Of a DNA stretch of 64,000 bases, positions 31,512 to 64,000 are shown one piece after another. Each line of letters opens with the position of its first letter. Position 1 is the stretch's first letter. The position numbers and the translations under genes were made by a program. This DNA comes from Gammaproteobacteria bacterium. GTDB taxonomy: Bacteria; Pseudomonadota; Gammaproteobacteria; Natronospirales; DASSBR01. The DNA lies in the NCBI GenBank assembly GCA_035690945.1, contig DASSJY010000003.1, positions 8,900-72,899 on the forward strand, given 5' to 3'. The notes beneath the pieces were generated by a model. It did not search any database and was not told the origin of the DNA. It saw only the letters and a list, made by a program, of their open reading frames with translations.

Positions 31512-37223
<5,712 letters not shown>

Positions 37224-37233
37224 ACCTCGCTCC

Positions 37234-38901
37234 TCAGTTATTGGCAACCAATGCCTGTTGTAATTCTTCCGGACGTGCCGGTTTGGTCAGATGCTGATCG
37301 AACCCTGCCTGCAATGCGCGGCGGCGGTCGTTGTCGCGGCCGAAGCCGGTCATCGCGATCAGCCGGATGCCCTCGCCGCCGGGATGACCGCGCACCTGGC
37401 GCGCCACCGCGTAGCCGTCCAGTCCAGGCATGGCGATGTCGACGATCGCCACGTCGGGCTTGCGCCGCGCGATCAGCATGGCGCCGTCGCTGCCATCGGC
37501 GGCGGTTTCGACGTGGTGTCCCCAATCTTCCAGCAGCGCCTGGATGCTGTCGCGGATGTCAGTCTCGTCCTCGACCAGCACGATGTTCAGCGGCGCGCAC
37601 GCCGCGGCGACCGTCGCCGCCGGCAACGGCACATCGTCTTCGGCCGGCTCCGCCAGCGGAATCCAGACGCTGAATTCGCTGCCGTGGCCGTGGCCGTCGC
37701 TGGCCGCCCGCACACGGCCGCCGTGCATCGCGACCAGCCGCTGCACCAGCGCGAGGCCGAGACCCAGTCCACGGCCACGGCTGTCTTCCTGCACGAACTG
37801 CTCGAAGATACGTTCCAGCATTGCGGGCGAAATCCCCTGGCCGTTGTCGCTGACGCGGATCAGCGCTTCGTCGCCGTCGCGCATCCAAGTCAATTGAACT
37901 TTACCGCCCTCGTCGGTGTAGCGCGCGGCATTGTTCAGCAGATTGGCGATAATTTGCGTCAGGCGCACCGGGTCGGCCGCGACCGTCAGCGCCTCGTCCG
38001 GCGGCGTCACGGTGAGCGTGTGGCGCTTCTCGGCGATCATGTCGGCGACGCTGTCGGCGGCCTGCCCGGCTGCCTCGGCCACCGCGACGCGGCCGATCTC
38101 GACGTTGATCTTGCCGCTGGAAATGCGCGCCACATCGAGCAGGTCGTCGATCAGCCGCATCAGGTGGCGCGCCTGGCGGTCCATCATGCCGCGTACGCGG
38201 CACACGCCGGCGTTGTCCTTGCCGTAGGTTTCGAGCAGTTGGATGCCGGTGACGATCGGCGACAGCGGATTGCGCAGCTCGTGCGCGAGCACGGCGAGAA
38301 ACTCGTCTTTCTGGCGGTTTTCGCGCCGCGCCGTGTCCGCCTTCCAGCGTTCGCGCTCGATCGCGATCTGGCGCAGGCTCTCGCGGCGTTCCAGCTCGCG
38401 CAGGCGCTGGGCCTGGTGCTGCACCTCGGCGGTGCGCTCCTGCAACTCGACAAATACCCGCGCCTTGGCGCGCAGCACCTCGGGGACGATCGGCTTGAAC
38501 ATGAAGTCGACCGCGCCGAGGCGGTAGCCCTTGAAGATTTCGGCGTCGTTGCGGGTGTAGGCAGTGACGAAGATGATCGGTACGTGGCGGGTGCGCTTGC
38601 GGTTGCGGATCAGCCGCGCGGTTTCAAAGCCGTCCATCCCCGGCATCTGCACGTCGAGGATGATCAGCGCGAAGTCGCGCGTCAGCAGCTCGCGCAGGGC
38701 GGCCTGTCCGGACTCGGCCTTGACCAGCCGCCGGCCCATATCGCCGAGCGCCACCTCGATGGCGGCGAGATTCGGCTTATTGTCGTCGACGACGAGGATG
38801 TCCGCGGACGGTGGAATTGCCGCGCGCTCCCGTTGCGGCGAGATCGCTGTTTCCGACTCCAATGGGCGCATACTCTGCAAAAATGGCTTCGATTGTAGCA
38901 A
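37234..38901 (-). CDS. REC - HisKA - HATPase - REC hybrid histidine kinase
   Basis: N-terminal receiver ([10 protein letters not shown]...[11 protein letters not shown]...FMFKP), coiled coil, H-box AHELRNPLS, HATPase ([25 protein letters not shown]) and a C-terminal receiver (IVLVEDE...DIAMPGLDG...HLTKP). Confidence 0.85.
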
Positions 38902-48839: not shown

Positions 48840-51800
48840 TTAGCGTCCAGTTGCGCTCGCGGACTCAGAGATGACGATCAGGCCATCGCCGTTGCGCTGG
48901 ATGCCGGGCTGAGCTGTCATATATTCGAGACCGTCGGCCATTCGCTCGCGGGTCTTCTGAGTCAGGCGCTGAAATCCCAATATTCGCATGGCCTCACGGA
49001 CTAGCGCATCTTCCGTCATGCTGACGTAGCTCTCCAGCACCTGCCTGAGCGCGTTCGCAATTTCCGGCAGCGGAATTTCGTCGGAAGAACGCTTGGCTTC
49101 CGGAACGCCGCCTGGCACACGCACCCGCCGATAGCTGATGGGATCTTGGTTGCGTCGCCATATGACTACATCGCCATCTTCGTCCGTCACAAACACGTCG
49201 GACCGGCGGAGCGCACCTTCTATACGATGGAGTAGTTTCTGGGTGACCTGCTGAAATCCCCACGCCTCGCCGACGCGACGGGCAAGAACCGGCAGCAGCA
49301 CCGGCCCTTCGACGTCTGCCACCTCGTGTATTTGCCGCACGAGCACAATATCCGAGGCGCCTTCATAGATCGCCGATTGTTCGCCGGGTACGAGGTCGAG
49401 TTGGCAGGGCTGGTATTTGGCGGTAGCCGCGGTGCGGCGCGTGGCTTGGTTGAAAACATCCCCGGCCGTTATGCGCAGTCCGTCGCTCTTAGTGGACCCA
49501 CGAGTGGCATTAGGCTCGTTCGAGAGAGCTGCAGCGGGTACTCTCGTTTCCGCCCTGGGAGGCTGTTCCAGTAGTTTGCCGAGAACCTTTTGAAGGCGGT
49601 CGATTTGCTGGGCCGGATCATGCCACCAGTCCGTGGACCAGACTCGGAGCACCGTCCAACCTAGATCCTCTAACACGGCCTGGCGAAGGCGATCACGATC
49701 GCGTGCCGTATGGGCACTGTGATAGGTAGCACCGTCGCATTCTACTGCCGCGAGATATTGCCCTGGCTTCCGAGGATCGAGGATGGCCAAGTCAATTCGG
49801 TAACCCGAGCAGCCGACTTGCGAATGGACTTGCCACCCCTTATCGAGAAGCGCCATTTTCACAGCATCTTCGAAGGGTGATTCGGTGTCGGCACCGGGGT
49901 CTACGGTGAGCTGCGAGTAGAGAGCCTGAGCGCCGCGTTCGGCGTATTCAAGAAAGCTCCGCAGGTCGGCAACTCCGCGTGAGTTGGTTCGGTTTAGATC
50001 GATGTCCGAATAACGGATACTTGAGTAGACGAGCAAAGCCTTACGCGCCCGCGTAATCGCTACGTTCAGTCGCCGCTGACCGCCCTCACGGTTGATCGCA
50101 CCAAAGCTGAGTGTGGAACGCCCGACTGCATCCTTTCCGAAGCAGATCGAAAACAAAATTACGTCCCGTTCATCACCCTGCACGTTCTCTAGATTCTTGA
50201 TAAATACCGGCTCTCGCGCGTCCTCGGCGAAATAACGGTCAAGCTCCGAGTCGCTGAGGCGCGCATTTTCCAGCAGATCCTCAATCAGTCGTTGCTGCTG
50301 AATATTGAAGGTTACGACGCCGATGGATTCGTGCTGGCGTGACGGATCGTGGAGTCGCTGAGCTATTTCGGCAACGATAGCTTCGGCTTCAGCTCGGTTG
50401 GTCCGCGACTTGCCCCGGTCATACACGGCGCCATCTACGTAACGGAACTCGACACCCATGCCTTCCAGGTATGGCGACGGAAAACTTAACAGACGGTTTT
50501 CGTAATACTCGTAATTGCTGAATGCGATCAGGCTTTCGTGGCGGCTCCGGTAATGCCATGTGAGCGGCAGAGACGGGATCCGAGCAGCCGTGCATTCTTC
50601 GAGTATGCTCTCCATGTCTGCGATTTCGTCTGGATCCGGTTCATCTCCAGCGTCGGCGGAGCGATTAAAGAAATTGGTTGGAGGCATCTGCTTGGAGTCA
50701 CCAGCGACGACCAAGCTCTTGCCGCGCGCGATGGCACCGAGTGCGTCCCATGGAGTGATCTGCGATGCTTCATCAAATACGACTACGTCAAACCAAGCGC
50801 GCCCCGCCGGCAGATACTGTGCGATCGACAAGGGGCTCATCAGGACGCACGGCGCGAGCCTGGGCAAAATGTTAGGGATGCTCTGGATAAGTTGGCGAAT
50901 CGGCATCAGGCCGCGCCGCCGCTTCGCTTGGCGCGCAAGGATTCCGATCTCTGAGTCGCCATGCGGTTCCCCGATTGGCCGGGGCACGCGCGCGGCCAAC
51001 GATGCTCGAACGTACTTGCGCGTAAGCTGGGTAAACTGGCTGTCCTGTTCGCGAAACCGTTCGAGTTTGCGCTCGTGCTCGGCGCTGAAAAAATCGCGAA
51101 CCGCGGGTTCAGTTGTCAGAGCGGTCTCAAACCACCATCGGTAAAGACTGCGTTCACAGGCCGCCGCCAGTTGGCCGCCCTCGAATGAACCGCTTTCATA
51201 GGCTGCAATCACGGGCCCGAATCCGCTTTGAATGGCACGATTTCGGGACCTGCGCCAATTGGTCCACTCACGGAGACGGCGCGCATTGGTGCTGAAGAGT
51301 CGGCAGGTGTCGATGAGGCCGCCCAAGTAATCTGCGCCGGCGCCTCCGAACCTGTCAAAATCCAGTTCCAGGGACTGCACCAGTTGATCACGTGCTTCCG
51401 TGAAAACCCGAAAGGCTTCGCGGTAAGCAATGAAGTCGCTTCCAATGGTGCCATCCGGCCGAAGAAGTTGCGGATCAGCGCATGCTATTACCGCCCAAGA
51501 ATCCCGTAGCGCGCGCGCACGCTCCGGGTCTGCATCGCTAAGGCTGAGCGCCGCGCTACGCAGACGGCCGCTCCAAATCTGTAGCCCGTGAATTTCGTCC
51601 CAGTTGCTTTCGCCGGGACGCCAGAAGCGGCCCAGCACGTGCCGCGCATCATCAGACTGCGACGAAAGCAGGTTTTCCTCCTGTTGAACTTGGACTCCCA
51701 GCGCGAGCAACGGGTCGATTGAATCGGGAGCAAGTTTTGCCTTTGTCCTTTGCGTCGCCCTAAGCGCCTTTGTGACGCGCCGCCGGAGAAGCCAAGCCTT

Positions 51801-54758
51801 CATGAACCAGCTTTGATCCGCGAGCTGCCACAGCTTGCGAAGCGCCGCCAGGTCGAGCTCAAGAATCTGCGGCTGATACTCTTGGAGGAGATCCTGCCTA
51901 AGGGCGTCGCGGCGCTTTCCATGCGCAATCCAGTCGTCAAGTTTGGCTTCGAGTTCTTTCCAGTCATCCTGCGCCAGCAGCGCGCGGGGCGGAGCGGGGC
52001 AGTCCAGAAACAGCTTTGTTAGTTCGTGCATCTGTTCGAGCTGGCGCAGCGACCAACCTTGATCCGCTAATTTGAGCCGTGTGGACACGGAGCGTGCGGC
52101 TTGCAGTAGCGCCACGATTGACTGGTGCAATTTTGCGGTGCCGTCGGCGGCATCACGGTCCAAAGCTGGCGTCCACTGCATAGCGCAGACAATGTCAAAG
52201 CGCGGGTTTCCGATTTCATCCCGGATCTTCGCGGCCGTGGCGGTTTCGTCGAGGAGTTCCAGCATGGACGATAGATTGTCGCCGTCAAGCACTTCCAGCG
52301 ATGGCCACGAAGCCGCGACAGCTGGCGCATCGTTCAGCGTCAGTAGATGGCCGATCGCGCGGTAGAGGCTGAGCCCATTGCTGCGCTGCCGATGGAGCCC
52401 TTCCACATAGTCGTTGAGAGCCGACCGCAAATCCGCGAGTTTGACCGCCTCTCGTTCCCAGTCGACTTGCGCCTGTTCCGCAGTGATTGCAAGTGGACGA
52501 GCCAGCTGCTCGACAACTTCGCGCTTCCGAGCTTTTTTGGAATGTAGTTCAAGACAGAAAGGCCCCAGTCCGACCTTATCAAGCCGATCGTAGACAACGT
52601 TCAGCGCCGCCGCTTTTTCTGATACGAATAAAACCGTTTTTCCGTTCATCAGGCACTGGGCAACAATATTTGCGATAGTCTGGGACTTGCCGGTACCTGG
52701 CGGCCCCTCCAATACGAATGTCCGACCTTCAGCAGCAGCGAAGATGGCAGCCAGTTGCGACGAGTCAGCGGGCAGAGGGCAGAACGTATCTTTTGGGTGA
52801 TACTCACGATCAAGCCGGTCCGGTTGAGGAAACTCGCCGTCGTCGCCGAAGGACTCGGTTGCGTGGTTGAGCAGATGGTCGACCACAGAGCTTTGCATGA
52901 TCAATTCCATGTGATCCTGCAGGTCCTTCCACATCAGGTATTTATTAAAGGAGAACAGCCCCAGCGCGACGCGCTCCTGAACCTCCCACCCCGGCAGGTC
53001 ACGCACTGCGTGGCGCACGATGTTGATTATTTGGGGGATGTCGACGCCTGCATCATCTGTCGGCAACGTCTCGAGTGCGCGCAGGTTGAGATCGAAGTCG
53101 CGCTCCAGTAACTGCAGTAGCGAAATATTGATGATCGTGTCGTCGTCATGGCTACACAGCGTAAAGCCGTGGTTGACGGAGCGACGGCTCAATTCAACCG
53201 GCACCAGCACCAGAGGCGCAAGACATGGCTCGCTGCGCTGCTGCGGTACCCACGACAGAAATCCAATGGCTAGATATAGCGTGTTAGCTCCGCCTTCGCT
53301 CTCCGCTTCCTTGGCGGCCCGATAGATCTCCAAAAGGTGGCGGTCCAGGCGTTCTGATCCGAGGACTGAATGCAGACGTCCGGCCTGCATTTCATCGCTG
53401 ATATATCCTTGAAGGGGGTTCTCCCCGGTGCGCGCGATGTAGACATCTGCCTGACGACCGTCGCCGCGCTCCATCAATCTCTCGTTCGGCAAGATCCGGA
53501 ACTGGCTCCCCTCCGCTAAATGATCTTCTAGGGCAGCGGGATCTGCTACCTGCAGTACGACCGTTTTCTTGCTTTCTTTGAAATTCAGCAGGCGGTTGTT
53601 TAGCGTGAGATCCAGCAACATGGCGCGCCAACGCTCGAGGCGGTTCTGCGGGGTTTCTTTTTCCGCCGCGCCCGACAGTCCATCATCCCAAGCCGGTAGG
53701 TCTGGAATGTCAAAGACCGCTTCGTTCTTGACCTTCTGGGCCGGTTCAGCAGGGGCTGTTGCGGCGTTTGCACCGCGAATCGGTAGTGGCTGGATCCGGT
53801 TATGACGTGCTCGCGCGACGTCGATGAACAGACGGAAATCCTCTTCCTCATTAAGCCGGCTACGCGCCTCAGCCACGGCGGTATTGAAGTCGACCGCACG
53901 AGTGGCGGCAGTCGATTCGAACGCGCAGATGTCGCGCATATCCACACGCTTGCGCAATGACAGGAGGTCATCACTGGCTGCAGTCTCAAATGACTCGTCG
54001 TGCAGCCAGACGCCCGGCAACGCGTGCCCGCTGAAGAAGACGATTACCGGATGAAGACCAGCTTGCTCAAGACAAGCCGAAAAAAGCAACGTGCTATCAA
54101 GGCACGTTGCAAGGCGCGTCGATTCAATCCGATCCGGCGTCCGAATCTTCTGGCCGCGCTCCTCGAAGCTGGCAGGTGGACTACAGTAAGCAATATTCGA
54201 TTGCATCACGGTGGCGTAAATCGAGGCCGCAATTGCCCAAACGCGTTTCCGATCTTGCTGCTGATAGCCGTCGAGGGCGCCGCTACCAGTGTGCTTTTCA
54301 AGAACGATCGAGGCGGCGCGAAGATACCGCTCGGTTGCTGGATGGTTCGGAAACGAAAAAGCAGCTATTAGCTCAGGGATGGATCCAATACCAGCCCATT
54401 CGTCATACGCAAGGATGTTGATGGGCAAACTCTGATGGGCTTCCGTTTGGTCGCCAGCCAAGACACTGACAGCGAGCTGACCCCGTAGTCTTTCCGCCAA
54501 GCCGCCAAGGTACCCCGGCGATAGCGTCAAGTCGACGGGTCGCAGTTCGTACGACTCGCCCGGGCTTATGCTGCTAATGCGTGTGCGATAAAGTTCCGCA
54601 AATCCCGGATCGCTCTGCACCTCGACGACGATGTTTTCGACAGTTGTTTCGCCTGTGTTTGCGAGGACGATCGAACGGATTACGGGGACCGCGTTTTGCT
54701 GTCGCGCAAAGTTTACGCGCTCATCGAATTCGACGAGTTTGATTTGAATTCGGGACAT
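48840..54758 (-). CDS. 1972-aa multidomain protein: beta-sandwich + transglutaminase-like Cys/His module, DUF4011, SF1 (Upf1/DNA2-like) helicase with large insertion, Vsr/DUF559-like endonuclease, DUF3320 (Hhe-like candidate defence protein)
   Basis: TCLDSTLLFSACLEQAGL...SGHALPGVWL (Cys219/His245). DUF4011-like LLDLTLNNRLLNFKESKKTV. Walker A LEGPPGTGKSQT (685-692), Walker B VVFDEASQ (~1327), VAGDSKQMPP, WHYRS, VQGDERDV, RRLNVAITRARK. GYRIDLAI...AVECDGATYH...GWTVLRVWSTDWW (about 1650-1712). The C-terminal segment VEGPVLLPVLARRVGEAWGF is DUF3320-like. Confidence 0.9.
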   Translation of the reverse strand: MSRIQIKLVEFDERVNFARQQNAVPVIRSIVLANTGETTVENIVVEVQSDPGFAELYRTRISSISPGESYELRPVDLTLSPGYLGGLAERLRGQLAVSVLAGDQTEAHQSLPINILAYDEWAGIGSIPELIAAFSFPNHPATERYLRAASIVLEKHTGSGALDGYQQQDRKRVWAIAASIYATVMQSNIAYCSPPASFEERGQKIRTPDRIESTRLATCLDSTLLFSACLEQAGLHPVIVFFSGHALPGVWLHDESFETAASDDLLSLRKRVDMRDICAFESTAATRAVDFNTAVAEARSRLNEEEDFRLFIDVARARHNRIQPLPIRGANAATAPAEPAQKVKNEAVFDIPDLPAWDDGLSGAAEKETPQNRLERWRAMLLDLTLNNRLLNFKESKKTVVLQVADPAALEDHLAEGSQFRILPNERLMERGDGRQADVYIARTGENPLQGYISDEMQAGRLHSVLGSERLDRHLLEIYRAAKEAESEGGANTLYLAIGFLSWVPQQRSEPCLAPLVLVPVELSRRSVNHGFTLCSHDDDTIINISLLQLLERDFDLNLRALETLPTDDAGVDIPQIINIVRHAVRDLPGWEVQERVALGLFSFNKYLMWKDLQDHMELIMQSSVVDHLLNHATESFGDDGEFPQPDRLDREYHPKDTFCPLPADSSQLAAIFAAAEGRTFVLEGPPGTGKSQTIANIVAQCLMNGKTVLFVSEKAAALNVVYDRLDKVGLGPFCLELHSKKARKREVVEQLARPLAITAEQAQVDWEREAVKLADLRSALNDYVEGLHRQRSNGLSLYRAIGHLLTLNDAPAVAASWPSLEVLDGDNLSSMLELLDETATAAKIRDEIGNPRFDIVCAMQWTPALDRDAADGTAKLHQSIVALLQAARSVSTRLKLADQGWSLRQLEQMHELTKLFLDCPAPPRALLAQDDWKELEAKLDDWIAHGKRRDALRQDLLQEYQPQILELDLAALRKLWQLADQSWFMKAWLLRRRVTKALRATQRTKAKLAPDSIDPLLALGVQVQQEENLLSSQSDDARHVLGRFWRPGESNWDEIHGLQIWSGRLRSAALSLSDADPERARALRDSWAVIACADPQLLRPDGTIGSDFIAYREAFRVFTEARDQLVQSLELDFDRFGGAGADYLGGLIDTCRLFSTNARRLREWTNWRRSRNRAIQSGFGPVIAAYESGSFEGGQLAAACERSLYRWWFETALTTEPAVRDFFSAEHERKLERFREQDSQFTQLTRKYVRASLAARVPRPIGEPHGDSEIGILARQAKRRRGLMPIRQLIQSIPNILPRLAPCVLMSPLSIAQYLPAGRAWFDVVVFDEASQITPWDALGAIARGKSLVVAGDSKQMPPTNFFNRSADAGDEPDPDEIADMESILEECTAARIPSLPLTWHYRSRHESLIAFSNYEYYENRLLSFPSPYLEGMGVEFRYVDGAVYDRGKSRTNRAEAEAIVAEIAQRLHDPSRQHESIGVVTFNIQQQRLIEDLLENARLSDSELDRYFAEDAREPVFIKNLENVQGDERDVILFSICFGKDAVGRSTLSFGAINREGGQRRLNVAITRARKALLVYSSIRYSDIDLNRTNSRGVADLRSFLEYAERGAQALYSQLTVDPGADTESPFEDAVKMALLDKGWQVHSQVGCSGYRIDLAILDPRKPGQYLAAVECDGATYHSAHTARDRDRLRQAVLEDLGWTVLRVWSTDWWHDPAQQIDRLQKVLGKLLEQPPRAETRVPAAALSNEPNATRGSTKSDGLRITAGDVFNQATRRTAATAKYQPCQLDLVPGEQSAIYEGASDIVLVRQIHEVADVEGPVLLPVLARRVGEAWGFQQVTQKLLHRIEGALRRSDVFVTDEDGDVVIWRRNQDPISYRRVRVPGGVPEAKRSSDEIPLPEIANALRQVLESYVSMTEDALVREAMRILGFQRLTQKTRERMADGLEYMTAQPGIQRNGDGLIVISESASATGR

Positions 54759-55082: not shown

Positions 55083-55997
55083 CTAATCGCCGGCAAGCAT
55101 GGAAGCCAGTTCGGGGATGCCGATGACGGCGACGCTTTCGGCTTTCTGGTAGCGCTCTTCGCCGGAATAAACGATGAAGCTGCAGTCCGGCTTCAAATCT
55201 GCGCGGGCGTGGTGGAATCCCTTGTCGAGCTTGGGAGCGAGGCTGCGCTTGATTTCCACGGCCCAGCGCTTGCCGCCGGGCAGATCCAGCACCAAGTCTA
55301 TTTCCGCGCCGGCCGAAGTCCGATAGAAGCAGGCTTGGGTTCTTTCCGGCGCGGCGCTCAGCAGATTTTCTATGACGAAGCCTTCCCAGCTTCCGCCGGC
55401 GACCGGATGGCCGAGCACTGCTTCCCGGTCGTCGAGACCCAGCAGCGCGTGAGCGATGCCGCTGTCGCGCACGTAAACCTTGGGCGATTTTACGAGTCGT
55501 TTGCCGACATTCGCGTGGAAGGGCTGCAAGCGCCGCACCAGCAACAGGTCGACCAGCAGGTCGAGATAGCGGGCGACGGTTTTGCCGTCGACGCCGAGGC
55601 CACGTGCGAGTTGAGCCGCATCAAGCGTTCCGCTGTGCATGTGCGCGAGCATCGTCCAGAAGCGGCGCAGCGTTTCGGCCGGCACTCGCGGCCCCAGTTG
55701 CGGAATATCCCGTTCCAGGTAGGTGCGAATAAAGTTTTCGCGCCAGACGGCGCTGGCCTCGTCAGATGTCGCCAGAAAGCTGTCGGGGAAGCCGCCCCTG
55801 ATCCAGAGCGTTTCTTGTTGGCCACCGTCGATTTCGAGTGCACCAGCCGGGGGCCAGTTCTCGCATTGTTGCATTTGAGCCAGTGGGGGATATCCTCTCG
55901 AGTTACCATCGCACAGGGCAACGTAGCTGCGCATCGCGAGACCCATAGTTCTTCGCGCAACAAGCTGACGCAGCCGTACGCTGCTGCAATTCCGCAA
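55083..55997 (-). pseudogene. 5'-truncated AAA_14/DUF4143-family ATPase gene (only the C-terminal two-thirds retained)
   Basis: From ...TLWIRGGFPDSFLA onward the ORF matches the post-Walker region and DUF4143 part of COG1373-type ATPases (HSGTLDAAQLARGLGVDGKTVARYLDLL, KSPKVYVRDSGI, EIDLVLD). No Walker A or AAA_14 N-domain is present, and the first ~45 aa look unrelated. Homology starts at about the position of repeat copy B. Confidence 0.6.
55852..55873. repeat. Direct repeat copy B (GGCCAGTTCTCGCATTGTTGCA)
   Basis: See copy A. It sits at the point where similarity of the DUF4143 ORF to its family begins. Confidence 0.7.
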
Positions 55998-56015
55998 AAA
56001 AAGGGGGAAAGCTGA

Positions 56016-56591
56016 CTACTGGAGTTCGTCGAGCGTCGAGGTCACGAGCACGCAGGTGCAGCCGGTTTCGCTGTAAACGCGTGTGTCGCCGGTGCCTCGT
56101 TCGCCGCGATTATAGTCGCCCGGATAGAGCTTCCGGTCTTCGATCCACAATTCGCCGTCGAGCAGATGCAATTCCTCGACGCCGGCGTGCTGATGCGGCG
56201 GATATACCCCGCCGGGCTCGAGGCGTACGAGCATGCTCACGCGGTGGCGCTCGGTGTCGTTGGCGAGCAACTGGCACCAGATGCCGGGCGCGACATTTTC
56301 CCATTCCGGCTCTTTCCAGCTTTGCGCCGGAGATGCCGGATCCCGCGCGGTCGCGTCGATGCCAATGCGCTCGGCGAGCCGGTTCCAAAGCGACGGCGAC
56401 GGCCGCAGCACGTCGGTCGGCCACGAGGAGAACGAATCCACCACGGGCGCGAGCGTCGCGAGCGTGCGTCGGCAGTCCTCGCAGGTCGCGAGGTGCGCCT
56501 CAACGCCGGCCTTCTCGCTCGGCGGCAACGCTCCCAGCGCGTAAGCGCAGACCTGGTCCGCAAACCCGCAGTTATTCGCCGGCGCGGTCAT
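56016..56591 (-). CDS. ChrR-type anti-sigma factor (zf-HC2 anti-sigma domain + cupin)
   Basis: The start MTAPANN at 56591 forms an ATGA overlap with the sigma gene stop. HLATCEDCRR is the zinc anti-sigma motif. The C-terminal cupin is PGGVYPPHQHAGVEELHLLDGEL. Confidence 0.8.
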   Translation of the reverse strand: MTAPANNCGFADQVCAYALGALPPSEKAGVEAHLATCEDCRRTLATLAPVVDSFSSWPTDVLRPSPSLWNRLAERIGIDATARDPASPAQSWKEPEWENVAPGIWCQLLANDTERHRVSMLVRLEPGGVYPPHQHAGVEELHLLDGELWIEDRKLYPGDYNRGERGTGDTRVYSETGCTCVLVTSTLDELQ

Positions 56592-57229
56592 AGATCGTTT
56601 CCTTCCGGCCCGAGAGTCCGACGAAGCTTGCCGAGCCCTGACCGGATCCGTGTCTTGATTGTTCCGAGCGGCTCGTTCAGCCGAACCGCCACTTCGGAGT
56701 AGGTCAGGCCGGAGAAATAGGCGGTTTCGATCGCGAGGCGCTCGTTGGCCGTCAAGGTCGCTAGTGCACAATGCAACGTGCCTGCTTGCTGCGCTCGCTC
56801 GACAGGCGCCTCGGACGGGTTGTTGGCCGCAATCGCGGCCTCGGCCTGTCCGGTGTGTGGATTGACGCGCTTCTTGCGTCCATCGTGGCGCACCCGGTCG
56901 ATCGCCCTCGACCGCGCCTGGTTCATGATCCAGCCGACGACCGTACCGGCATCCGGATCGTACGTCGGGGCGCGACGCCAGACGTCGTGAAAAACGTCCA
57001 GCGTCAACTCTTCCGCCGTTTGGCGGTCATTCGCAATTCTCATGGTGAGCGTAAACACGATTCGTTGAGCGCGGTTGTAAAGCGCCTCGAGCGCATACTC
57101 GTCACCGGTCGCGATCGACCTGACGAGCGCGACCCAGTCGCTCTCGTCAACCAGCTCCGCAGCGGGCTGTGCATAAAGCACGTCCCCGAGCGTAGCCGGT
57201 GCCGCCCCTGTTTCATCGTCCTCACGCAC
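56588..57229 (-). CDS. ECF (group 4) RNA polymerase sigma factor
   Basis: Region 2 (AEELTLDVFHDVWRR, GTVVGWIMNQARSRAIDRVR) and region 4 HTH (LTYSEVAVRLNEPLGTIKTRI). Confidence 0.85.
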   Translation of the reverse strand: MREDDETGAAPATLGDVLYAQPAAELVDESDWVALVRSIATGDEYALEALYNRAQRIVFTLTMRIANDRQTAEELTLDVFHDVWRRAPTYDPDAGTVVGWIMNQARSRAIDRVRHDGRKKRVNPHTGQAEAAIAANNPSEAPVERAQQAGTLHCALATLTANERLAIETAYFSGLTYSEVAVRLNEPLGTIKTRIRSGLGKLRRTLGPEGNDL

Positions 57230-57275
57230 GGCGCAATTATCGCCGCATAAGCGCTCGTTGTGAATACCTCGCGGG

Positions 57276-57638
57276 TCACGTTGATTTCGCGCTCGTTAAC
57301 GGGTCGCCAATGGCGGGTAACTCGCCGCCGGCCCTGTTGCGCGCCAGACGGCTCGGGGCCCTGAGCCGGTCGCGCTCGAATTCGAACTCCACGAAACAGT
57401 AGCCATGGAAGTGCAGCTTCTCGAGGCGTGAGGCGCCGTGCGCGCCAGCGAACTCCGCTTCGATCTCCGCCTCAGAGAAATCGATTTTCATCCCGCACAA
57501 CGCGCAGCGGGCGCCGGAGCCACGGCCGCCCCACGTGTCTTTCGGCCGGGTGATCGGCAATCGGCCGTGCGCGATCAGATCGCGTGCCTGCTTGCGCAGT
57601 TGAATTGTCCGCTGCTCAGTTCTCGTAATACTTGTCAT
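57276..57638 (-). CDS. Hypothetical 120-aa protein upstream of the ECF sigma gene
   Basis: The ORF has plausible coding composition and contains CALCG...HFHGYCF, a possible metal site. I recognise no family. Confidence 0.35.
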   Translation of the reverse strand: MTSITRTEQRTIQLRKQARDLIAHGRLPITRPKDTWGGRGSGARCALCGMKIDFSEAEIEAEFAGAHGASRLEKLHFHGYCFVEFEFERDRLRAPSRLARNRAGGELPAIGDPLTSAKST

Positions 57639-57825
57639 ATTCTAAATTTGCCTGTGTTACCGCACGACGTCCGCGGAGAGGGGCGATCAGACCGTCCAGC
57701 ACGGCACGCCCAAAACCTGTTTATAGACGCTGCTTCATACAGTAGAACGTCAAGCGCGGGCGATTGGATTGGTCCCGCCAAGCCGGCTTACTGGCAGGGT
57801 TAGCGGGAGGCTGTTCGGCCTAGGG

Positions 57826-57854
57826 TTTACCCAAGAACAATTTACCCGCATAAT
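57826..57854 (+). promoter_or_regulatory. Sigma70-like promoter feeding riboswitch 1
   Basis: TTTACC-N17-CATAAT. The predicted start site falls at about 57860, the 5' edge of the aptamer. Confidence 0.45.
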
Positions 57855-57962
57855 CGCCACCGCACGACAACGGCAAACCCGGCGAAAGCTGGGGACGCAA
57901 AGCTTCCGGCCTTCGGTATCGCTTAACGACGATGCCTGGTAGCGGGGTCACCGAATGCATGG
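57855..57962 (+). promoter_or_regulatory. c-di-GMP-I (GEMM-I) riboswitch aptamer
   Basis: CGCACGACAACGGCAAACCCGGCGAAAGCTGGGGACGCAAAGCTTCCGGCC...CCTGGTAGCGGGGTCACCGAATGC. This aligns almost position for position with the V. cholerae Vc2 aptamer as I remember it (CACGCACAGGGCAAACCAUUCGAAAGAGUGGGACGCAAAGCCUCCGGCC...GGUAGGUAGCGGGGUUACCGAUGG), including the GAAA tetraloop hairpin. Confidence 0.85.
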
Positions 57963-58097
57963 GTACATAGAAGGCCCGCCTCCACCATGCGCGTTCGCGC
58001 AGGTTTTCCTTGATCGTGTGTTCAATGCAGTTTCGCGGAGCTGTTGCGAGTTGCATCAGGCCTGTCTGAGTGGCCGGCAATGATCGAGGGTTCATCG

Positions 58098-60767
58098 ATG
58101 AACGATGACGAGCAGACGCCTCAAGGTGACCTGGAATTTCGTGCGACCCATTCCCGCGCGCTGTTTGATTACGGCATGGATGCAGTTTTCCTCGCTCGCC
58201 CGGATGGCAGCATTATTTCCGCCAATCCAGCGGCCTGCACCTTGTTTGGAATGTCGGAAGCGGCGCTTCAGGAAGCGGGCCGCGCCGCAATCCTCGACGA
58301 AAACGATCCGGCGCTGCTCGCGATGGTCGCGGAGCGCACGAAGAAGGGCTCGGCGCGCGGGGAGGTTAAGGCGCGCCGTGCAGACGGAACCGGCTTCATT
58401 GCCGAGATCAGCAGCGTCATTTTCCTCAACGGCAAGGGCGAATATCTCACCAGCGCGACGGTCCGGGATGTAACCGCGAGAAAACTGGCCGACGACAAAT
58501 TGCGCTGGCGCGACCGACTGCTAAGCATGACCTCCAGGATTGCTCGGGTCGGCGGCTGGGAAGCAGATATGCGGTCGTTACGGGTGGCGTGGTCGGACGA
58601 AGTCTGCCGTATCCACGGCGTCGAACCCGGGACGGTGATGCCGCTCGAGGACGCGTTCCAGTTCTATGTACCCGAGCACCGCGAGCGTATCCGTACGGCA
58701 TTCATGGCCTGCACGCGCGACGGGTTGGCTTACGATGAAGATTTCGTCATCGTGACGACGGCCGGGGAAAGACGGCACGTTCGATCTATCGGCGAAGCTG
58801 TTCGCGATGCGGCCGGCAACATTACCCGCATTCAGGGCGCACTTCAGGACATTACCGAACTCAAACGGGCGGAGACCAGGCTTGTCCGAGCGCGTGAGCG
58901 CTTTCAGCAGTTTGCCGACGCAATGCCACTAATCGTGTGGACAGCAAAAGCTGATGGCACTGTGGACTACGCCAATAACGCGTTCAGTCAATTTGGTTCT
59001 ACCGACAGAGATGAGCTGCTAGCTCGGCATTGGCAGGATGCCATACATCCTGACGATCGCGAACGCTGCAGGGCAGCCTGGCAAGAGGCGGTGGAAGCCG
59101 GCACGCGCTACGCAGTTGAAGTCCGCTGCCTCACACCCGGCAATACCGGCGGACGCTGGCACATCATCAGCGCCGAACCGATTCGCGACGAAGGGAGGAT
59201 CGTCAGATGGTACGGCACCGCCATCGACATTCACGAACGCAAGCTGTCGCAGAAAGCAGCCGCCGAGTCGGCAGAGCGGTTGCAAACCACGCTCGAGAAT
59301 ATTACCGACGGGTTCATGATGTTGGACCATGATTGGCGTTTCACCTATGTCAATGGCGAAGCGGAGCGGCTGTTACGAGGGAAGCGCGAAAGATTGCTCG
59401 GACGAAATGTCTGGACCGAGTACCCCGATGCTGTCGGCATGAGTTTCGAGAGGGGATATCGGCAGGCTGTGGAGACGCAACAGGCAGTGCATTTTGAGGC
59501 GCACTATCCGCCGCTGGGCATCTGGGTCGAGGCGCATGCTTACCCCACGAGCGACGGGGTCGCCGTCTATCTTCGCGATGTCACAGAGCGGCGCGCCCTG
59601 GAAGAACAACTCCGACAGTCGCAGCGGCTGGAGGCCGTCGGGCAGTTGACAGGCGGCGTTGCGCACGACTTCAACAACCTGCTCACGGTCATCCTGGGCG
59701 GCGCCGATGCGCTGTCGGAAAAGCTGACCCCAGACTCGCCACTACACGAGTTGGCGCTCGTTATCCGAACGGCGGCAGAACAAGGGAGCGCGCTCACCCG
59801 TCGATTGCTCGCCTTCGGGCGGCGCCAGCCGCTGTCACCACGAATCGTGAATATTAACCAACTCATCGCCGGAATGGACGATCTACTGCGACGTACGCTG
59901 AGCGAAACGATCGATATCGACATACAGACCATGCCCGAGTTATGGTCCGCCTTGATTGATGCCACCGAATTGCAAGCGGCCTTGCTGAACCTGTGCCTTA
60001 ATGCTTGCGATGCAATGGGTCAGGACGGCTGCCTGACGATTGAGACCGCCAATGCGCGTCTGGACGGGGCATACGCCGATCAGCACAAAGGAGTTACTCC
60101 GGGCGAGTATGTTTTATTGGCGGTTTCGGACACCGGTACTGGCATCGCTGCGAACCATCTGGAAAAGGTCTTTGATCCCTTTTTTACCACCAAGGAGAAA
60201 GGCAAAGGCACCGGCCTGGGTCTCAGCATGGTGTACGGGTTCGTGAAGCAGTCCCGAGGCCACATCAAGATTTATTCCGAGCCAGGCCAAGGGACCACCG
60301 TCAAGCTGTATCTACCGCGTGCCAATCATGCGGCGGACGCGTCACAGTCTGTGGCCGACGCTGCCATTGATACTCCATCCGAAGTCAGCGGTAGCGTGGT
60401 GCTTGTGGTTGAGGACGACGATCTGGTGCGGCGGCACGCGGAAACGCTGCTCATTGATCTGGGCTACGAAGTGGTGGCCGCGGGCGACGGCCCTGGTGCG
60501 TTGGAACTAATTCGTGCGCGGCCAGACATCGACTTGCTGTTCACAGACGTAATCATGCCCGGCATGAATGGGCGTGAATTAGCGGAGGCCGCGCGCAAGC
60601 TTCGGCCGGCCCTCGCGATCCTTTTTACCTCCGGCTACACGGAAAACGCGATTGTCCATCATGGCCGACTGGATAAAGGCGTGCATCTGCTGCAGAAACC
60701 TTATCGAAAGGCGGAACTTGACCGCAAGTTACGCGACATTTTGCCGCAGACAGCAGTATGCAATTGA
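58098..60767 (+). CDS. Multi-PAS hybrid sensor histidine kinase (PAS x3-4, HisKA, HATPase, REC)
   Basis: Several PAS/PAC modules ([72 protein letters not shown]). H-box [11 protein letters not shown], then [17 protein letters not shown] and receiver VLVVEDDD...[11 protein letters not shown]...LQKP. I prefer the ATG at 58098 (GAGGG 9 nt upstream); 58080 and 58044 are alternatives. Confidence 0.85.
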
Positions 60768-60782
60768 TTAGAGGAATTGGGA

Positions 60783-62015
60783 ATGACTGACGGGCGCCTG
60801 CTGATTCTGGACGACGATCCTGCTGTCGGCCGTATCATCCAGTACATGGCCGCCAACATCGGCTTGACGCATCGCGCGGTAACGGCACCAGATGCCTTCT
60901 TTGCCCATCTGGACGCTTGGGAGCCGGATTACATTCTGCTCGATTTGCTGATGCCCGAGATGGACGGCGTGCAAATCCTGCAATGCCTGGCGGAACGTGG
61001 CTGCAAGGCGGCCATCATTATCTCGACTGGAGCCGATGACAGGATTCGGGACGCGGCACGGCGGGCGGCGCAAGAAAACAAGCTGTTTGTCGCCGGATCC
61101 TTATCGAAGCCGTTCACTGTGGCGCAGCTGCGCGAAATCATCAATGGCATCGATGCCGCTCGCCCGGCACCGCAGCGGCAGCCTGTTCCACTCGGCAATC
61201 TGCCAATTACGGAAGCCGACCTGCAACGGGCGATCGAGGAACAGCAGATCGAACTCGCTTACCAGCCTAAAATCGCTTGCGCCAGCGGCAGGCTGCTCGG
61301 TTTCGAGGCGCTGGCGCGTTGGCGGCATCCAGATCGAGGCATCATCATGCCGGACGAGTTTATACCGCTGAGCGAGACGAGCGGGCTGATTGATCCGCTT
61401 ACGCGGCTGGTAGTGCGGCAAGGACTTGAATGGATCACCGGCGCCGCTCGTGAGGTGCATGCGGAAACGCTGTCGCTGGCCATTAACCTGTCAGCCAAAA
61501 GCCTCGCCGTTTCGAATCTGGCCGATCGTATTGCCGCCGTCTGCAAGGCATTTTCATTTCAGCCTGAACGCCTGACGCTTGAGCTGACCGAAACCGCAGC
61601 GATGGAGGATCCGGCGCTCGCGCTCAGCATGCTGACACGGTTGCGTATCAAAGGCTTTGACCTGTCGATCGACGACTTCGGTACCGGCTATTCGTCGATG
61701 ATGCAGTTGTCCCGATTGCCTTTTTCGGAGATCAAGGCCGACAAATCCTTTGTTATGTCGGCCTCGCGTTCCTCCGAATCGCGCGCGATCGTCAAGGCGA
61801 CGGTGGATCTCGGCCGCAGCCTCGGGCTGCGAACCGTTGCCGAAGGTGTTGAAGATATCGACACGCTGGACTATCTGAACGAGATCGGCTGCGACGTAGT
61901 CCAAGGCTACTATATCGCTCGTCCGATGCGTGCCGAAACAGCGGCACGATGGATGACAGGATGGGCCGGCTGGACGGAACCCGATTTGCGCGTTCGGCCG
62001 GCAATGTCATTGTGA
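60783..62015 (+). CDS. Response regulator with EAL c-di-GMP phosphodiesterase output (REC-EAL)
   Basis: GAGGAA lies 6 nt before the ATG at 60783. The receiver is LLILDDD...LLDLLMPEMDG...ISTG...SKPF. The EAL domain has its catalytic motifs intact (YQPKI, FEALARW, NLS, ELTE, DDFGTGYSS, KADKSF, EGVE, QGYY). Confidence 0.9.
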   Translation: MTDGRLLILDDDPAVGRIIQYMAANIGLTHRAVTAPDAFFAHLDAWEPDYILLDLLMPEMDGVQILQCLAERGCKAAIIISTGADDRIRDAARRAAQENKLFVAGSLSKPFTVAQLREIINGIDAARPAPQRQPVPLGNLPITEADLQRAIEEQQIELAYQPKIACASGRLLGFEALARWRHPDRGIIMPDEFIPLSETSGLIDPLTRLVVRQGLEWITGAAREVHAETLSLAINLSAKSLAVSNLADRIAAVCKAFSFQPERLTLELTETAAMEDPALALSMLTRLRIKGFDLSIDDFGTGYSSMMQLSRLPFSEIKADKSFVMSASRSSESRAIVKATVDLGRSLGLRTVAEGVEDIDTLDYLNEIGCDVVQGYYIARPMRAETAARWMTGWAGWTEPDLRVRPAMSL

Positions 62016-62072
62016 CGCAATCCGGTCCTGGATCGACCTTGTCTTAGATCGAGTCTAAATTGCTGTATTTTC

Positions 62073-62101
62073 TTGCCCTGCATGTGGATTCCCGCTAAAA
62101 T
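62073..62101 (+). promoter_or_regulatory. Sigma70-like promoter feeding riboswitch 2
   Basis: TTGCCC-N17-TAAAAT. The predicted start site falls at about 62107, the 5' edge of the second aptamer. Confidence 0.45.
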
Positions 62102-62102
62102 T

Positions 62103-62205
62103 GCGTCCGCACGAAAAGGCAAACCCGTCGAAAGGCGGGGACGCAAAATCACCGGCCTAAAGGATCTTTTACGGATCCCACGGTAGCGGGATCGTCGAAC
62201 GCGCA
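62103..62205 (+). promoter_or_regulatory. c-di-GMP-I (GEMM-I) riboswitch aptamer, second copy
   Basis: CGCACGAAAAGGCAAACCCGTCGAAAGGCGGGGACGCAAAATCACCGGCC...CCACGGTAGCGGGATCGTCGAACGC. The conserved blocks are the same as in copy 1 and Vc2 (GGCAAACC, GAAA tetraloop, GGACGCAAA, CCGGCC, GGTAGCGGG). Confidence 0.8.
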
Positions 62206-62335
62206 GGCGATGTTCTGTCCGCCTGTTCTGTGGCTCTCTATTGCAGAGTTTCGTGCCCGTGCGCTGGTGCAGGTCGGCTTATGCCGACGGTGCCGGCGTG
62301 TATTTTCGTACCCGAAATAGGGATGGAATGAAACG

Positions 62336-62836
62336 ATGAATAAGAGACTCTTGAAGCTTGTTATTGCGGGCGCTTTGATTGTGCCCACCGCATCTGCGTT
62401 TGCCGCCACCTCGGCGACGACCACGTTCACGACATCGGCCACTGTCGTCGCCTCCTGCCAGGTCGCGGCGGCCAATCTGTCGTTCGGGAATGTGGATCCG
62501 CTCTCGGCTACGGCGACCGACGCGACTTCGGACATCACCGTGACCTGCTCCAAAGGCACCGCGTACACAGTGGGTCTGAACGCAGGCGCGACGACGGGTG
62601 CCACCACGACTACGCGTCAGATGCTCGACAGTAACAGCGATGCGATGAACTACGGTCTCTACACCGATTCAGCGCACGCAACCAACTGGGATGACATTGG
62701 CGGCACCAAAACGCAGGCTGGGACCGGCACCGGATCGGCGCAGACGCTAACCGTCTACGGTGAGGTTCCTACCGGGCAGACGGCTTTGCCGCCCGGCGCT
62801 TACAGCGACACCGTCACCGTCACCGTCTCGTACTAA
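62336..62836 (+). CDS. Spore-coat-U (SCPU) domain fimbrial subunit, Csu-type pilin
   Basis: Signal peptide ...ASAFA|ATS. The Thr/Ala-rich beta protein has the SCPU hallmarks ASCQV...LSFGNVD, ITVTCSKGTAYTVGL, YGLYTD and a C-terminal YSDTVTVTVSY. Confidence 0.8.
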   Translation: MNKRLLKLVIAGALIVPTASAFAATSATTTFTTSATVVASCQVAAANLSFGNVDPLSATATDATSDITVTCSKGTAYTVGLNAGATTGATTTTRQMLDSNSDAMNYGLYTDSAHATNWDDIGGTKTQAGTGTGSAQTLTVYGEVPTGQTALPPGAYSDTVTVTVSY

Positions 62837-62847
62837 GGGGAACTAAA

Positions 62848-63588
62848 ATGGCGGCACGGTCCTTTAGCCGGCTGCGCGGCAAGGTCGTGCTGCCCGTTCT
62901 CTTGTGTCTTTTACTGGCCCCGCCGGTCTATGCCGGCGGGTTCCAGATCACGCCCATGCTGATCGAGGTGCCGACCGGCTCGTCGATTGCCACCTACACC
63001 GTGCGCAACACCGGGAATCAAGCGGTAAACATTCAGGTCAGCGCTTTTCGCTGGACGCAGTCTGGCAATCAAGATCATTATGCGTCGGCGTCCGACCTGA
63101 TGGTTATTCCACAGATATTGTCCGTCCCGCCGGGAGGTCAACAACTGGTGCGGGTGGCGCTGCGGAGCGCGCGACCGCCTGGTGAATTGGCTTACCGTGT
63201 GCATTTCGACCAAATTCCGCCCACGCCGAAGAAGGGCTTTATTGGCGTGCAAACCGTGATCGACATGGATCTGCCATTGTTCTTCCTGCCTCCGCACGTC
63301 AGCAACAGCTTCCGCATCCAGTTGACCCGCAAGGCGCGGGGGAAGGCTGCCATGGCGAATATCCACAATACCGGCACCCGGTTCCTGCGCATCTCCAATC
63401 TCGTCTTGCTAAACGCTGCCGGCGAGGAAGTCGGTAAGCTTCGCGGCCCTCTTTACGTTTTGCCTGGTATGAACCGTCATTGGACGATCAATATCGAGCC
63501 AGGTAAATCGCCGCTCGTGGCGGGAACGTATCGCCTGAAAATTGTGAGTGACGGGAAGCAGCAGATACGCCGGTTGTCCCTGCAGTAG
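62848..63588 (+). CDS. Periplasmic fimbrial chaperone (PapD/CsuC-like)
   Basis: Signal peptide, then FQITPMLIEV...YTVRNTGNQAVNIQV, VIPQILSVPPGGQQLVRV and a two-domain Ig-like layout. Confidence 0.8.
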   Translation: MAARSFSRLRGKVVLPVLLCLLLAPPVYAGGFQITPMLIEVPTGSSIATYTVRNTGNQAVNIQVSAFRWTQSGNQDHYASASDLMVIPQILSVPPGGQQLVRVALRSARPPGELAYRVHFDQIPPTPKKGFIGVQTVIDMDLPLFFLPPHVSNSFRIQLTRKARGKAAMANIHNTGTRFLRISNLVLLNAAGEEVGKLRGPLYVLPGMNRHWTINIEPGKSPLVAGTYRLKIVSDGKQQIRRLSLQ

Positions 63589-63600
63589 CCGGGTGGTGAG

Positions 63601-64000
63601 GTGCAGGTGGCCTACCGCTACCGGCTGCTGACGCTCCCGGTAATCGTGTTGATCATGGTGTCTTCGGCCTTTGCGAAAGATGGCTTTCAGGAGCATTGGT
63701 ACCGGGCGGCTGTAAATCACGTCGATTCACATTTGTGGGTGCTGCTGATTAGCCGGGATGGCCTGCGTTACGTGCGTCGACTCGATCTGCTGTCGTTAGG
63801 CCTTCCGGTGCCTGAGGCGACGCCGGTGCGGCACGCCAGCGAGATCTATTATCCGGCGTCGGCTTTGGACAATGTCGCTCTATATATCGACCAGCGGGAT
63901 CGGCGCATCTATTTTGTCGATGGAAACCGGCCTGAAATCGCCAAGCCGCCGTCAGCCGATTTGCTGCTTACGGTGACGATTGACGGGCGCCGCCTCAAGA
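63601..64000 (+). CDS. Fimbrial usher-like protein, N-terminal fragment (continues beyond the window)
   Basis: My translation from the GTG at 63601 is VQVAYRYRLLTLPVIVLIMVSSAFAKDGFQEHWY...DLLLTVTIDGRRLK. It has a signal-like N-terminus and an L-L-T-V-x-I-D/N-G segment typical of usher N-domains. The frame is open to the window end. The start codon is uncertain (GTG 63601/63607 or ATG ~63655). Confidence 0.5.
   Translation, partial: MQVAYRYRLLTLPVIVLIMVSSAFAKDGFQEHWYRAAVNHVDSHLWVLLISRDGLRYVRRLDLLSLGLPVPEATPVRHASEIYYPASALDNVALYIDQRDRRIYFVDGNRPEIAKPPSADLLLTVTIDGRRLK

Follow-up and report, generated by a model that had tools for sequence, protein, structure and literature searches.

As a rule, riboswitches for the second messenger cyclic di-GMP (c-di-GMP) sense it and control output genes, for example those for motility or adhesion. 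What would such an RNA do in front of an enzyme that destroys its own ligand, and would the enzyme be made when the messenger is abundant or when it is scarce? This question is raised by a 64,000-nt stretch of DNA from an uncultured soil gammaproteobacterium (contig DASSJY010000003.1; hereafter the window, numbered from its first letter), in which a GEMM-I (c-di-GMP-I) aptamer, called riboswitch 1 here, precedes genes for a multi-PAS hybrid kinase and a receiver (REC)-EAL phosphodiesterase, and a second aptamer, riboswitch 2, precedes an adjacent chaperone-usher pilus operon. We found that riboswitch 1 has an ordinary c-di-GMP-I aptamer, that it very probably controls the kinase-phosphodiesterase operon, and that this arrangement is conserved in related bacteria. 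The best explanation overall, which we hold with confidence somewhat above even, is a canonical c-di-GMP-I riboswitch with OFF logic that heads the kinase/REC-EAL operon within a two-riboswitch module. The features of riboswitch 1 and its operon are as follows (SD, Shine-Dalgarno; MFE, minimum free energy).

57826–57854, + strand: predicted sigma-70-type promoter of riboswitch 1, TTTACC-N17-CATAAT (consensus scan, 9/12 matches)
57862–57958, + strand: riboswitch 1 aptamer, GEMM-I / c-di-GMP-I, with P1 = 57862–57866 and 57952–57958, P3 = 57902–57950 and the P2 loop GAAA = 57884–57887 (Rfam, own covariance model, covariation, strain variants)
57957–57962, + strand: proposed antiterminator 5′ arm GCAUGG, pairing with 57985–57990 (CCAUGC; −8.7 kcal/mol)
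57985–58011, + strand: terminator-like hairpin, CC-A-UGCGC / GCGCAGG stem at 57985–58003, then UUUUCCUU (terminator scan, −9.3 kcal/mol)
58008–58016, + strand: CCUUGAUCG, predicted partner of the SD region UGAUCGAGG at 58081–58089 (MFE folds, pair probabilities)
58098–60767, + strand: hybrid sensor histidine kinase gene (Pfam, NCBIfam; ATG, SD GAGGG 7 nt upstream)
60783–62015, + strand: gene for a REC-EAL response-regulator phosphodiesterase, RocR/PvrR-like (Pfam, RocR alignment; ATG, SD AGAGGA)

The aptamer was assessed by running Rfam cmscan over the whole window, where two + strand matches, each to a model of clan CL00126, exceeded the gathering score. Riboswitch 1 scored 65.7 bits against RF03167 (c-di-GMP-I-GGC; gathering score 59, E = 2.7e-13) at 57863–57956 (+), matched two further models of the clan, and reached 92 bits at 57857–57962 with a covariance model of our own (R1). 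A preliminary description of this DNA had drawn a GEMM-I aptamer at 57855–57962 and proposed a covariance-model search as its check; the aptamer was borne out and its score clears the gathering score, but the best model is RF03167 and not RF01051. Fitting the P1/P2/P3 fold to 11 aptamers of the clade left 92.3% of cells paired, compared to 27–46% in slid-partner controls, and six pairs had changed on both sides, in 20 cells. Contigs of close strains from soil metagenomes carried the substitutions 57917 U>C (U·G to C-G) and 57935 C>U (G-C to G·U), with the distal P3 pairs kept. P3 in riboswitch 1-type RNAs lacks the CCUAAG/UAUGG-type tetraloop receptor expected by RF01051; its internal loop in the window is CCUUCGG/CCUGG, compared to the CCUAAG/UAUGG-like receptor of riboswitch 2, while the GAAA loop in P2 is present. 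The ligand-contact bases G20, A47 and C92 (Vc2 numbering, checked against the contact list in PMC7288161, which gives the PDB 3IRW contacts as G14–G21 and C46–G50) are at 57872, 57899 and 57951, and they are present in all 11 clade aptamers except for one riboswitch 2 base. In Vc2, as stated in 10.1101/617340, G20 and C92 directly touch the two guanines of the ligand, and a U at either position weakens binding.

Among the clan models RF03167 scored highest for riboswitch 1, as it did for four orthologous aptamers, which would favor the alternative that these RNAs form a c-di-GMP-I-GGC variant class sensing another ligand, hence with no c-di-GMP feedback. We consider this most improbable. Taking ‘GGC’ to mean positions 20/47/92, which is our own reading of the name and the consensus, the RF03167 consensus has G at position 47 (in GACGCGAA), whereas the window and all 10 related aptamers, that is every row reaching the column, have A (GACGCAAA); G20 and C92 are canonical. 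The RF03167 consensus GACGCGAAgCc reads GACGCAAAGCU in the window, and the cmscan alignment mismatches at exactly that G. On this position-47 test the variant was rejected as the identity of the aptamer, and the Rfam label is, in our reading, an effect of competition between models. The matches to two further clan models and a gene neighborhood of c-di-GMP turnover likewise argue against another ligand. A c-AMP-GMP (GEMM-Ib) identity was also rejected, with G at 57872 where A20 is needed; an A at position 20 is reportedly the mark of that class in the 2015 work of Kellenberger and of Nelson. The ligand of riboswitch 1 should be c-di-GMP, since the contact bases are the canonical G/A/C and not G/G/C.

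Pfam assigned three to four PAS domains (PAS_9, PAS_3, PAS_4), HisKA (H523, AHDFNN), HATPase_c and a C-terminal REC (Response_reg, D817) to the kinase, whose orthologues are 57–62% identical. The second protein combines Response_reg with an EAL domain (E = 1.7e-69), and its residues 2–385 align with residues 2–383 of RocR from Pseudomonas aeruginosa (PDB 3SY8, E = 1.5e-58), with which it shares the receiver aspartate (LLDLLMPEMDG) and the EAL, N, ExxE, DDFGTGYSS, K, EGVE and QG motifs. Among NCBIfam models PvrR fits it best, at 271.6 bits against an equivalog cut-off of 580, so that it is a PvrR relative and not an equivalog. From kinase stop to REC-EAL start there are 15 nt in the window, and in relatives the genes overlap by 4–8 nt; operon adjacency and translational coupling make phosphotransfer from the kinase to REC-EAL plausible. 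The aptamer sits in the 5′ leader of the operon, and the second gene of this operon encodes an intact EAL phosphodiesterase; the ligand of the riboswitch is hence the predicted substrate of the enzyme. These results agree with the earlier claims of a multi-PAS hybrid kinase at 58098–60767 and of a REC-EAL protein 15 nt later with its catalytic motifs intact, and the claim that riboswitch and enzyme share one molecule is supported by the canonical contacts, the leader position and conservation in six of six loci. A promoter-like sequence, TCGACA-N18-TATGGT, occurs at 59917–59946 (+) inside the kinase gene as a consensus match only and, if active, could express REC-EAL independently of the riboswitch.

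The leader places the aptamer on the same strand as the genes, with a gap of 141 nt between the aptamer match and the ATG at 58098. Transcription is predicted to start at ~57859–57862, at the P1 5′ strand, and a (G/C)ATAAT box 7–9 nt 5′ of P1 was present in the window and in L001, L003, L168 and L169, the four orthologues in which this stretch is preserved. Transcription probably begins at the aptamer, given the conserved position of this −10 box. Downstream, a hairpin core TGCGCGTTCGCGCA (TGCGCG-TT-CGCGCA) at 57988–58001, followed by GGTTTTCC, extends to a 7-bp stem at 57985–58003. This element has the GC-rich hairpin directly before a U-run that characterizes intrinsic terminators and is predicted to act as one; an analogous hairpin with a U/C-rich tail was found in L001, L003, L169 and L170. 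Both the promoter and the GC hairpin had been named in the preliminary description, and both stand, the former with nine of 12 consensus matches and a conserved −10 box, the latter in the terminator scan and with a longer stem.

Conservation was assessed on kinase orthologues with upstream DNA (L001/L002, L003 on the same contig as L008, L168, L169 and L170). A GEMM-I aptamer lies immediately 5′ of the kinase gene and on its strand in all six orthologous loci, the window included (Rfam; R1, 83–109 bits). An R1 search of 79 loci with more distant PAS hybrid kinases gave no aptamer, and R1 with filters off gave none in two more distant kinase + REC-EAL loci (L171, L172). The closest REC-EAL and kinase relatives come from metagenome-assembled genomes of uncultured soil Gammaproteobacteria (57–71% identity), the closest REC-EAL protein being P0002 (71%), which has no contig on record. 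Kinase scans of genome and metagenome contigs recovered almost only paralogous PAS kinases and added one true orthologue (L008); the remaining orthologues came through protein searches and contig look-ups.

Leader sequence outside the aptamer and hairpin is more variable. In a ~97%-identical strain from runs X10 and X4, the 88 nt at 58004–58091 are replaced by 86 unalignable nt, and the aptamer, hairpin and kinase gene that flank this segment are conserved in the same contigs. The window also has an upstream open reading frame of 14 codons (ATGCAGTTTCGCGGAGC...) at 58024–58068, which resembles the start of an N-terminal extension of orthologous kinases. This extension, of ~100 hydrophobic residues (MQD/MQH...FAK), is found in L001, L003, L169 and L170 and is absent from the window and L168, and the short reading frame is possibly a remnant of a deletion that took out a membrane anchor.

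Does binding of c-di-GMP then switch this operon on or off? Nearest-neighbor energies with the aptamer core fixed were −1.0 kcal/mol for P1, −8.7 kcal/mol for the antiterminator and −9.3 kcal/mol for the terminator hairpin at 57985–58003. The antiterminator arm GCAUGG shares its first two bases with the end of the P1 3′ strand, and its partner CCAUGC is the 5′ arm of the terminator; because of these shared bases, the antiterminator and the combination of P1 and terminator are mutually exclusive. When the leader was folded to 58003 with the core kept and P1 free, the MFE was −47.2, the antiterminator was present, the terminator was absent and the P1 5′ strand paired with the 3′ arm of the hairpin, while enforcing P1 gave −45.8 and the terminator was present. 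The balanced antiterminator and terminator energies, together with the weak P1, therefore favor OFF in the window.

In the mechanism that we propose, P1 would be too weak to hold without ligand, such that GCAUGG (57957–57962) pairs with CCAUGC (57985–57990), the freed P1 5′ strand can additionally pair with the terminator 3′ arm, and polymerase reads through to produce kinase and phosphodiesterase. With c-di-GMP bound, P1 would be locked, the hairpin at 57985–58003 with its U-run would form, and transcription would stop. High c-di-GMP would then shut off synthesis of the enzyme that degrades it, which amounts to a double-negative (positive) feedback with hysteresis or bistability, and the kinase would supply a phosphorylation input through the REC domain. 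The arrangement in L168 also suggests OFF logic by another route. This leader is without a terminator, its SD sequence GAGGGGG directly follows the P1 3′ strand, its only in-frame start is TTG 653, and CCC in the 5′ leader pairs with the SD as an extension of P1. The mean unpaired probability of this SD was 0.22 with the aptamer enforced compared to 0.55 with the P1 5′ strand blocked. The sign had been left open in the preliminary description; sequence and folding now give a moderate lean to OFF for the window, and we regard an OFF switch as the modestly favored outcome of these models.

Several observations weigh against this assignment. The unconstrained fold of the window has the terminator anyway, and in that fold a helix between GGCCUUC (57908–57914) and GAAGGCC (57970–57976) competes with the aptamer and disrupts P3. 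In L001, L003, L169 and L170 the terminator-like hairpin forms in bound and unbound models alike, and the conserved alternative to P1 in these leaders (GAAUG:CAUUC around a covarying hairpin, H1) does not touch the terminator; because these four orthologue leaders do not fit, OFF logic is not seen clade-wide. A perfect 9-bp match (G·U pairs included) to the SD region of the kinase, CCUUGAUCG, lies just 3′ of the terminator U-run, and the SD of the window is predicted to be paired in every modeled state (unpaired probability ≤0.01), which the OFF model leaves unexplained. The segment that holds both sides of this pairing, 58004–58091, is itself not conserved in the close strain. The antiterminator is only 6 bp long, and with many pairings examined some complementarity is expected by chance. 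Pfam matched no Hpt domain in the kinase, so that phosphotransfer to REC-EAL is at most plausible, and the runs that hold this sequence are DNA from soil and other metagenomes only. Two approaches to the sign were rejected. SD accessibility, compared among bound, unbound and free states of five leaders, did not serve to call it, since the SD is sequestered nearly always and only L168 differs; and no convincing antiterminator was found in L001, L003, L169 or L170, where the CCGCGG/CUGCGG pairings of L169 and L170 lose to hairpin H1.

The same riboswitch and operon could instead be wired as an ON switch, with the phosphodiesterase module made only at high c-di-GMP in a homeostatic negative feedback, and we see this as a possible but rather doubtful reading. 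Riboswitches that govern the removal of their own ligand, by degradation or export, are usually ON switches as a matter of general knowledge, which counts both for this reading and against ours. The most stable ligand-free fold of L001, L003 and L169 (the anti-P1 helix GAAUG:CAUUC plus H1) coexists with the terminator hairpin, such that the unbound state looks terminated in these three, and the terminator in the unconstrained MFE fold of the window points the same way. Yet in none of the five leaders did folding give a helix that breaks up the terminator when ligand is bound and only then; the energies in the window are balanced within a classical OFF geometry, and the SD of L168 sits within the P1 extension. 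We give a still lower probability, and consider it unlikely, that the aptamer binds c-di-GMP with no gating through 57985–58003 and acts through RNA stability, accessibility of the 5′ end, a short leader RNA or control of translation by long-range pairing with the SD region. Such action has a precedent in Vc2, which is reportedly non-terminating in vitro and acts via RNA stability (10.1101/617340). With the predicted transcription start at the P1 5′ strand, ligand binding would bury the 5′ end here; the predicted pairing of the SD with 58008–58016 and, in every riboswitch 1 leader, a UCGUG complement of the P1 5′ strand, with an 8-bp version (UUUCGUGC) in riboswitch 2, are also in its favor. 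The hairpin and U-run, however, keep their shape across five leaders despite sequence change, and the segment with the SD and its complement is lost even in the close strain. An OFF switch that acts through the terminator is thus the reading we prefer for the window.

The complement of P1 recurs in position as well. UCGUG, which complements the P1 5′ strand CACGA, stands just beside the terminator in the window (58014–58019) and after the terminator tail in L001, L003, L169 and L170. Riboswitch 2 has an analogue in the 8-bp UUUCGUGC for GCACGAAA at 62249–62256, and riboswitch 2 of L001 and L004 has GACGAC for GUCGUC. This recurrent sequence may represent an anti-P1 element that acts on full-length transcripts.

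Is the operon the only target of c-di-GMP at this locus? Beyond the REC-EAL gene we found a second riboswitch with its own promoter and putative terminator, followed by a pilus operon, with the following features.

62073–62101, + strand: predicted promoter of riboswitch 2, TTGCCC-N17-TAAAAT (consensus scan)
62108–62199, + strand: riboswitch 2 aptamer, c-di-GMP-I (RF01051, 75.5 bits, gathering score 35, E = 5.1e-13)
62258–62307, + strand: predicted terminator hairpin of riboswitch 2 (~16 bp), then GUAUUUUCG (scan, folds)
62336–64000, + strand: archaic (Csu-type) chaperone-usher pilus operon (Pfam), comprising the next three genes
62336–62836, + strand: SCPU subunit/pilin gene (Pfam)
62848–63588, + strand: PapD-like chaperone gene (Pfam)
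63601 onward, + strand: usher N-terminus, running off the window, 40% identical to the PF00577 usher of L006

Riboswitch 2 begins 92 nt after the stop of the EAL gene (62015), and a TTGGCA/TTGACA-N17-TAxxxT promoter occupies the equivalent place in L001, L003 and L004. Its G20 and A47 are canonical, whereas alignment to Vc2 and the RF01051 consensus (cU-gC-Cgaa vs AUC-GU-CGAA) puts a U at position 92 (62195). Close-strain contigs of two other metagenome runs have C at 62195, and the run with an exact match to the window has T, so that U92 is a recent lineage-specific C92U change; a new specificity class was rejected as its explanation for the same reason. By analogy with Vc2 mutant data (10.1101/617340), C92U is expected to lower the affinity for c-di-GMP. 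Strain changes in the terminator (62269 G>A and 62288 C>U) preserve pairing, and the folding models, all of which contain the 16-bp terminator, favor neither sign for riboswitch 2. A shared ancestry of the two expression platforms was considered and rejected, as the platforms failed to align. By eye only, the strings CUCAUU and CUCUCC-GCGG-UUUCC are common to both.

The wider arrangement is shared among relatives. Kinase, REC-EAL, aptamer and a surface-structure operon follow in the same order in L001, L003 and L004, where the operon after the riboswitch encodes a DUF4402 protein, a protein with a faint PapD_N match, a ~1090-aa SPOR protein and a further DUF4402 protein. The REC-EAL gene of L006 faces a convergent SCPU-chaperone-usher operon, at whose 5′ end lies a separate GEMM-I aptamer. 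No DNA-binding response regulator was present among the genes at 55083–64000. As a side observation, the four-gene clusters (L001 9609–15017, L003 9717–15147 and L004 2800–8294) include a protein of 282–294 aa with the PapD_N match (E = 0.023) and carry the SPOR domain at the C-terminus of the long protein, in a layout that resembles a chaperone-usher system made of uncharacterized families.

With the second riboswitch and the likeness to the Roc and Pvr systems of P. aeruginosa, the locus reads no longer as a simple feedback loop but as a conserved two-riboswitch module. The preliminary description had interpreted the locus as such a loop; its link between aptamer and operon holds, and it missed the aptamer at 62108–62199, just outside the interval it treated, as well as the Roc/Pvr likeness. 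In the extended scheme, riboswitch 2, with its own promoter and terminator, would gate the chaperone-usher pilus operon, such that a phosphodiesterase and an RNA reader of its substrate would be encoded side by side without a DNA-binding regulator. This soil bacterium thus appears to wire a small signaling module almost entirely through RNA, with parts all of known kinds in an uncommon arrangement. We advance only tentatively the fullest version, a self-contained RNA-read module where a RocR/PvrR-like pair sets the c-di-GMP pool, its own synthesis and its fimbrial target are both riboswitch-gated with no DNA-binding regulator, riboswitch 1 is OFF and adhesion is bistable. If true, this would be the first described second-messenger-degrading two-component system to be wired, together with its effector operon, through riboswitches for that messenger.

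Genes for an extracytoplasmic function (ECF) sigma factor and a ChrR-type (zf-HC2 + cupin) anti-sigma factor, in the region of 56016–57229 (−) and 57276–57638 (−), lie immediately upstream of the riboswitch promoter and diverge from it, and a 120-aa open reading frame beside them had no family match. Other large genes, all on the − strand, are at 31512–37247, 37234–38901, 48840–54758 and 40786–43293. Among them are a 1911-aa poly-HAMP/GAF hybrid kinase with two receivers that adjoins a second hybrid kinase, a 1972-aa DUF4011/AAA_11/AAA_12/MTES_1575 helicase-nuclease, and a LigD ligase/primase-polymerase.

Autoregulation of second-messenger turnover at the RNA level can be tested here in a compact and conserved setting, in which a single promoter, aptamer and terminator precede a single phosphodiesterase operon, and the riboswitch of the neighboring pilus operon could act as a built-in reporter of the same c-di-GMP pool. 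If the OFF logic is true, hysteresis between adhesive and non-adhesive states is predicted, and a Roc/Pvr-like fimbrial regulator may function with no transcription factor. In practical terms the locus is of modest value, as the organism is an uncultured soil gammaproteobacterium and all parts come from known families.

How does this locus compare with known c-di-GMP riboswitches? Riboswitch 1 resembles Vc2 (tfoY, Vibrio cholerae) and Cd1 (flgB, Clostridioides difficile) in the three-helix GEMM-I fold, the GAAA loop of P2 and the G20/A47/C92 contacts. Both have been reported as OFF switches, Cd1 by transcription termination (10.1101/617340; PMC6366702; in part general knowledge). They differ from riboswitch 1 in their targets, which are regulators of motility and competence, whereas the targets here are a phosphodiesterase and its kinase; P3 of riboswitch 1, known here from sequence alone, also differs in having no canonical CCUAAG/UAUGG tetraloop receptor. 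The work that identified the ligand already pointed to GEMM RNAs 5′ of diguanylate cyclase or phosphodiesterase genes (Sudarsan et al. 2008, as relayed in PMC3971182 and PMC7266159), and the novelty of a riboswitch before a c-di-GMP turnover gene was therefore overrated in the preliminary description. Reviews nevertheless call c-di-GMP riboswitches on turnover genes rare (PMC6366702), and in the literature that we searched there was no characterized GEMM RNA before a c-di-GMP turnover gene and nothing on SCPU pili or RocR-like systems under riboswitch control. As relayed, the GGDEF/EAL cases of 2008 share with this locus a c-di-GMP riboswitch before a gene that makes or breaks c-di-GMP; they are listed associations, whereas here the association is conserved throughout a clade and a second riboswitch, on an effector operon, accompanies it.

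In the design of its switch, riboswitch 1 is akin to OFF riboswitches such as xpt guanine and SAM-I, where a segment overlapping the 3′ side of P1 complements the 5′ arm of the terminator, the alternatives are near-isoenergetic and P1 is ligand-dependent. It differs in that the antiterminator is short (6 bp closing a loop of 22 nt), pairing between the P1 5′ strand and the 3′ arm of the terminator is also possible, and the design is not conserved in all orthologues.

At the level of the operons, the closest parallels are Roc (RocS1/RocR/RocA1) and Pvr/Rcs (PvrS/PvrR/RcsB/RcsC) of P. aeruginosa, in which a hybrid kinase and a REC-EAL protein are encoded beside the cup fimbrial genes that they control (PMC2696094, PMC3083521, PMC12051241). 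The locus shares with them a hybrid kinase and REC-EAL next to chaperone-usher genes, RocR being the best solved-structure match and PvrR the best NCBIfam model. Identity is modest (271.6 vs 580 bits for PvrR), the kinase here is without Hpt, and the pili are SCPU/Csu-type. In contrast to the Pseudomonas systems, no DNA-binding regulator of the RocA1/RcsB type occurs near the locus; riboswitches occupy the regulatory positions, and a c-di-GMP riboswitch precedes both the regulator and the fimbrial operon, a feature that those systems lack. The family of every part and the placement of GEMM RNAs before cyclase and phosphodiesterase genes are already known, and what this locus adds is a conserved two-riboswitch, Roc/Pvr-like module together with a testable prediction of bistability.

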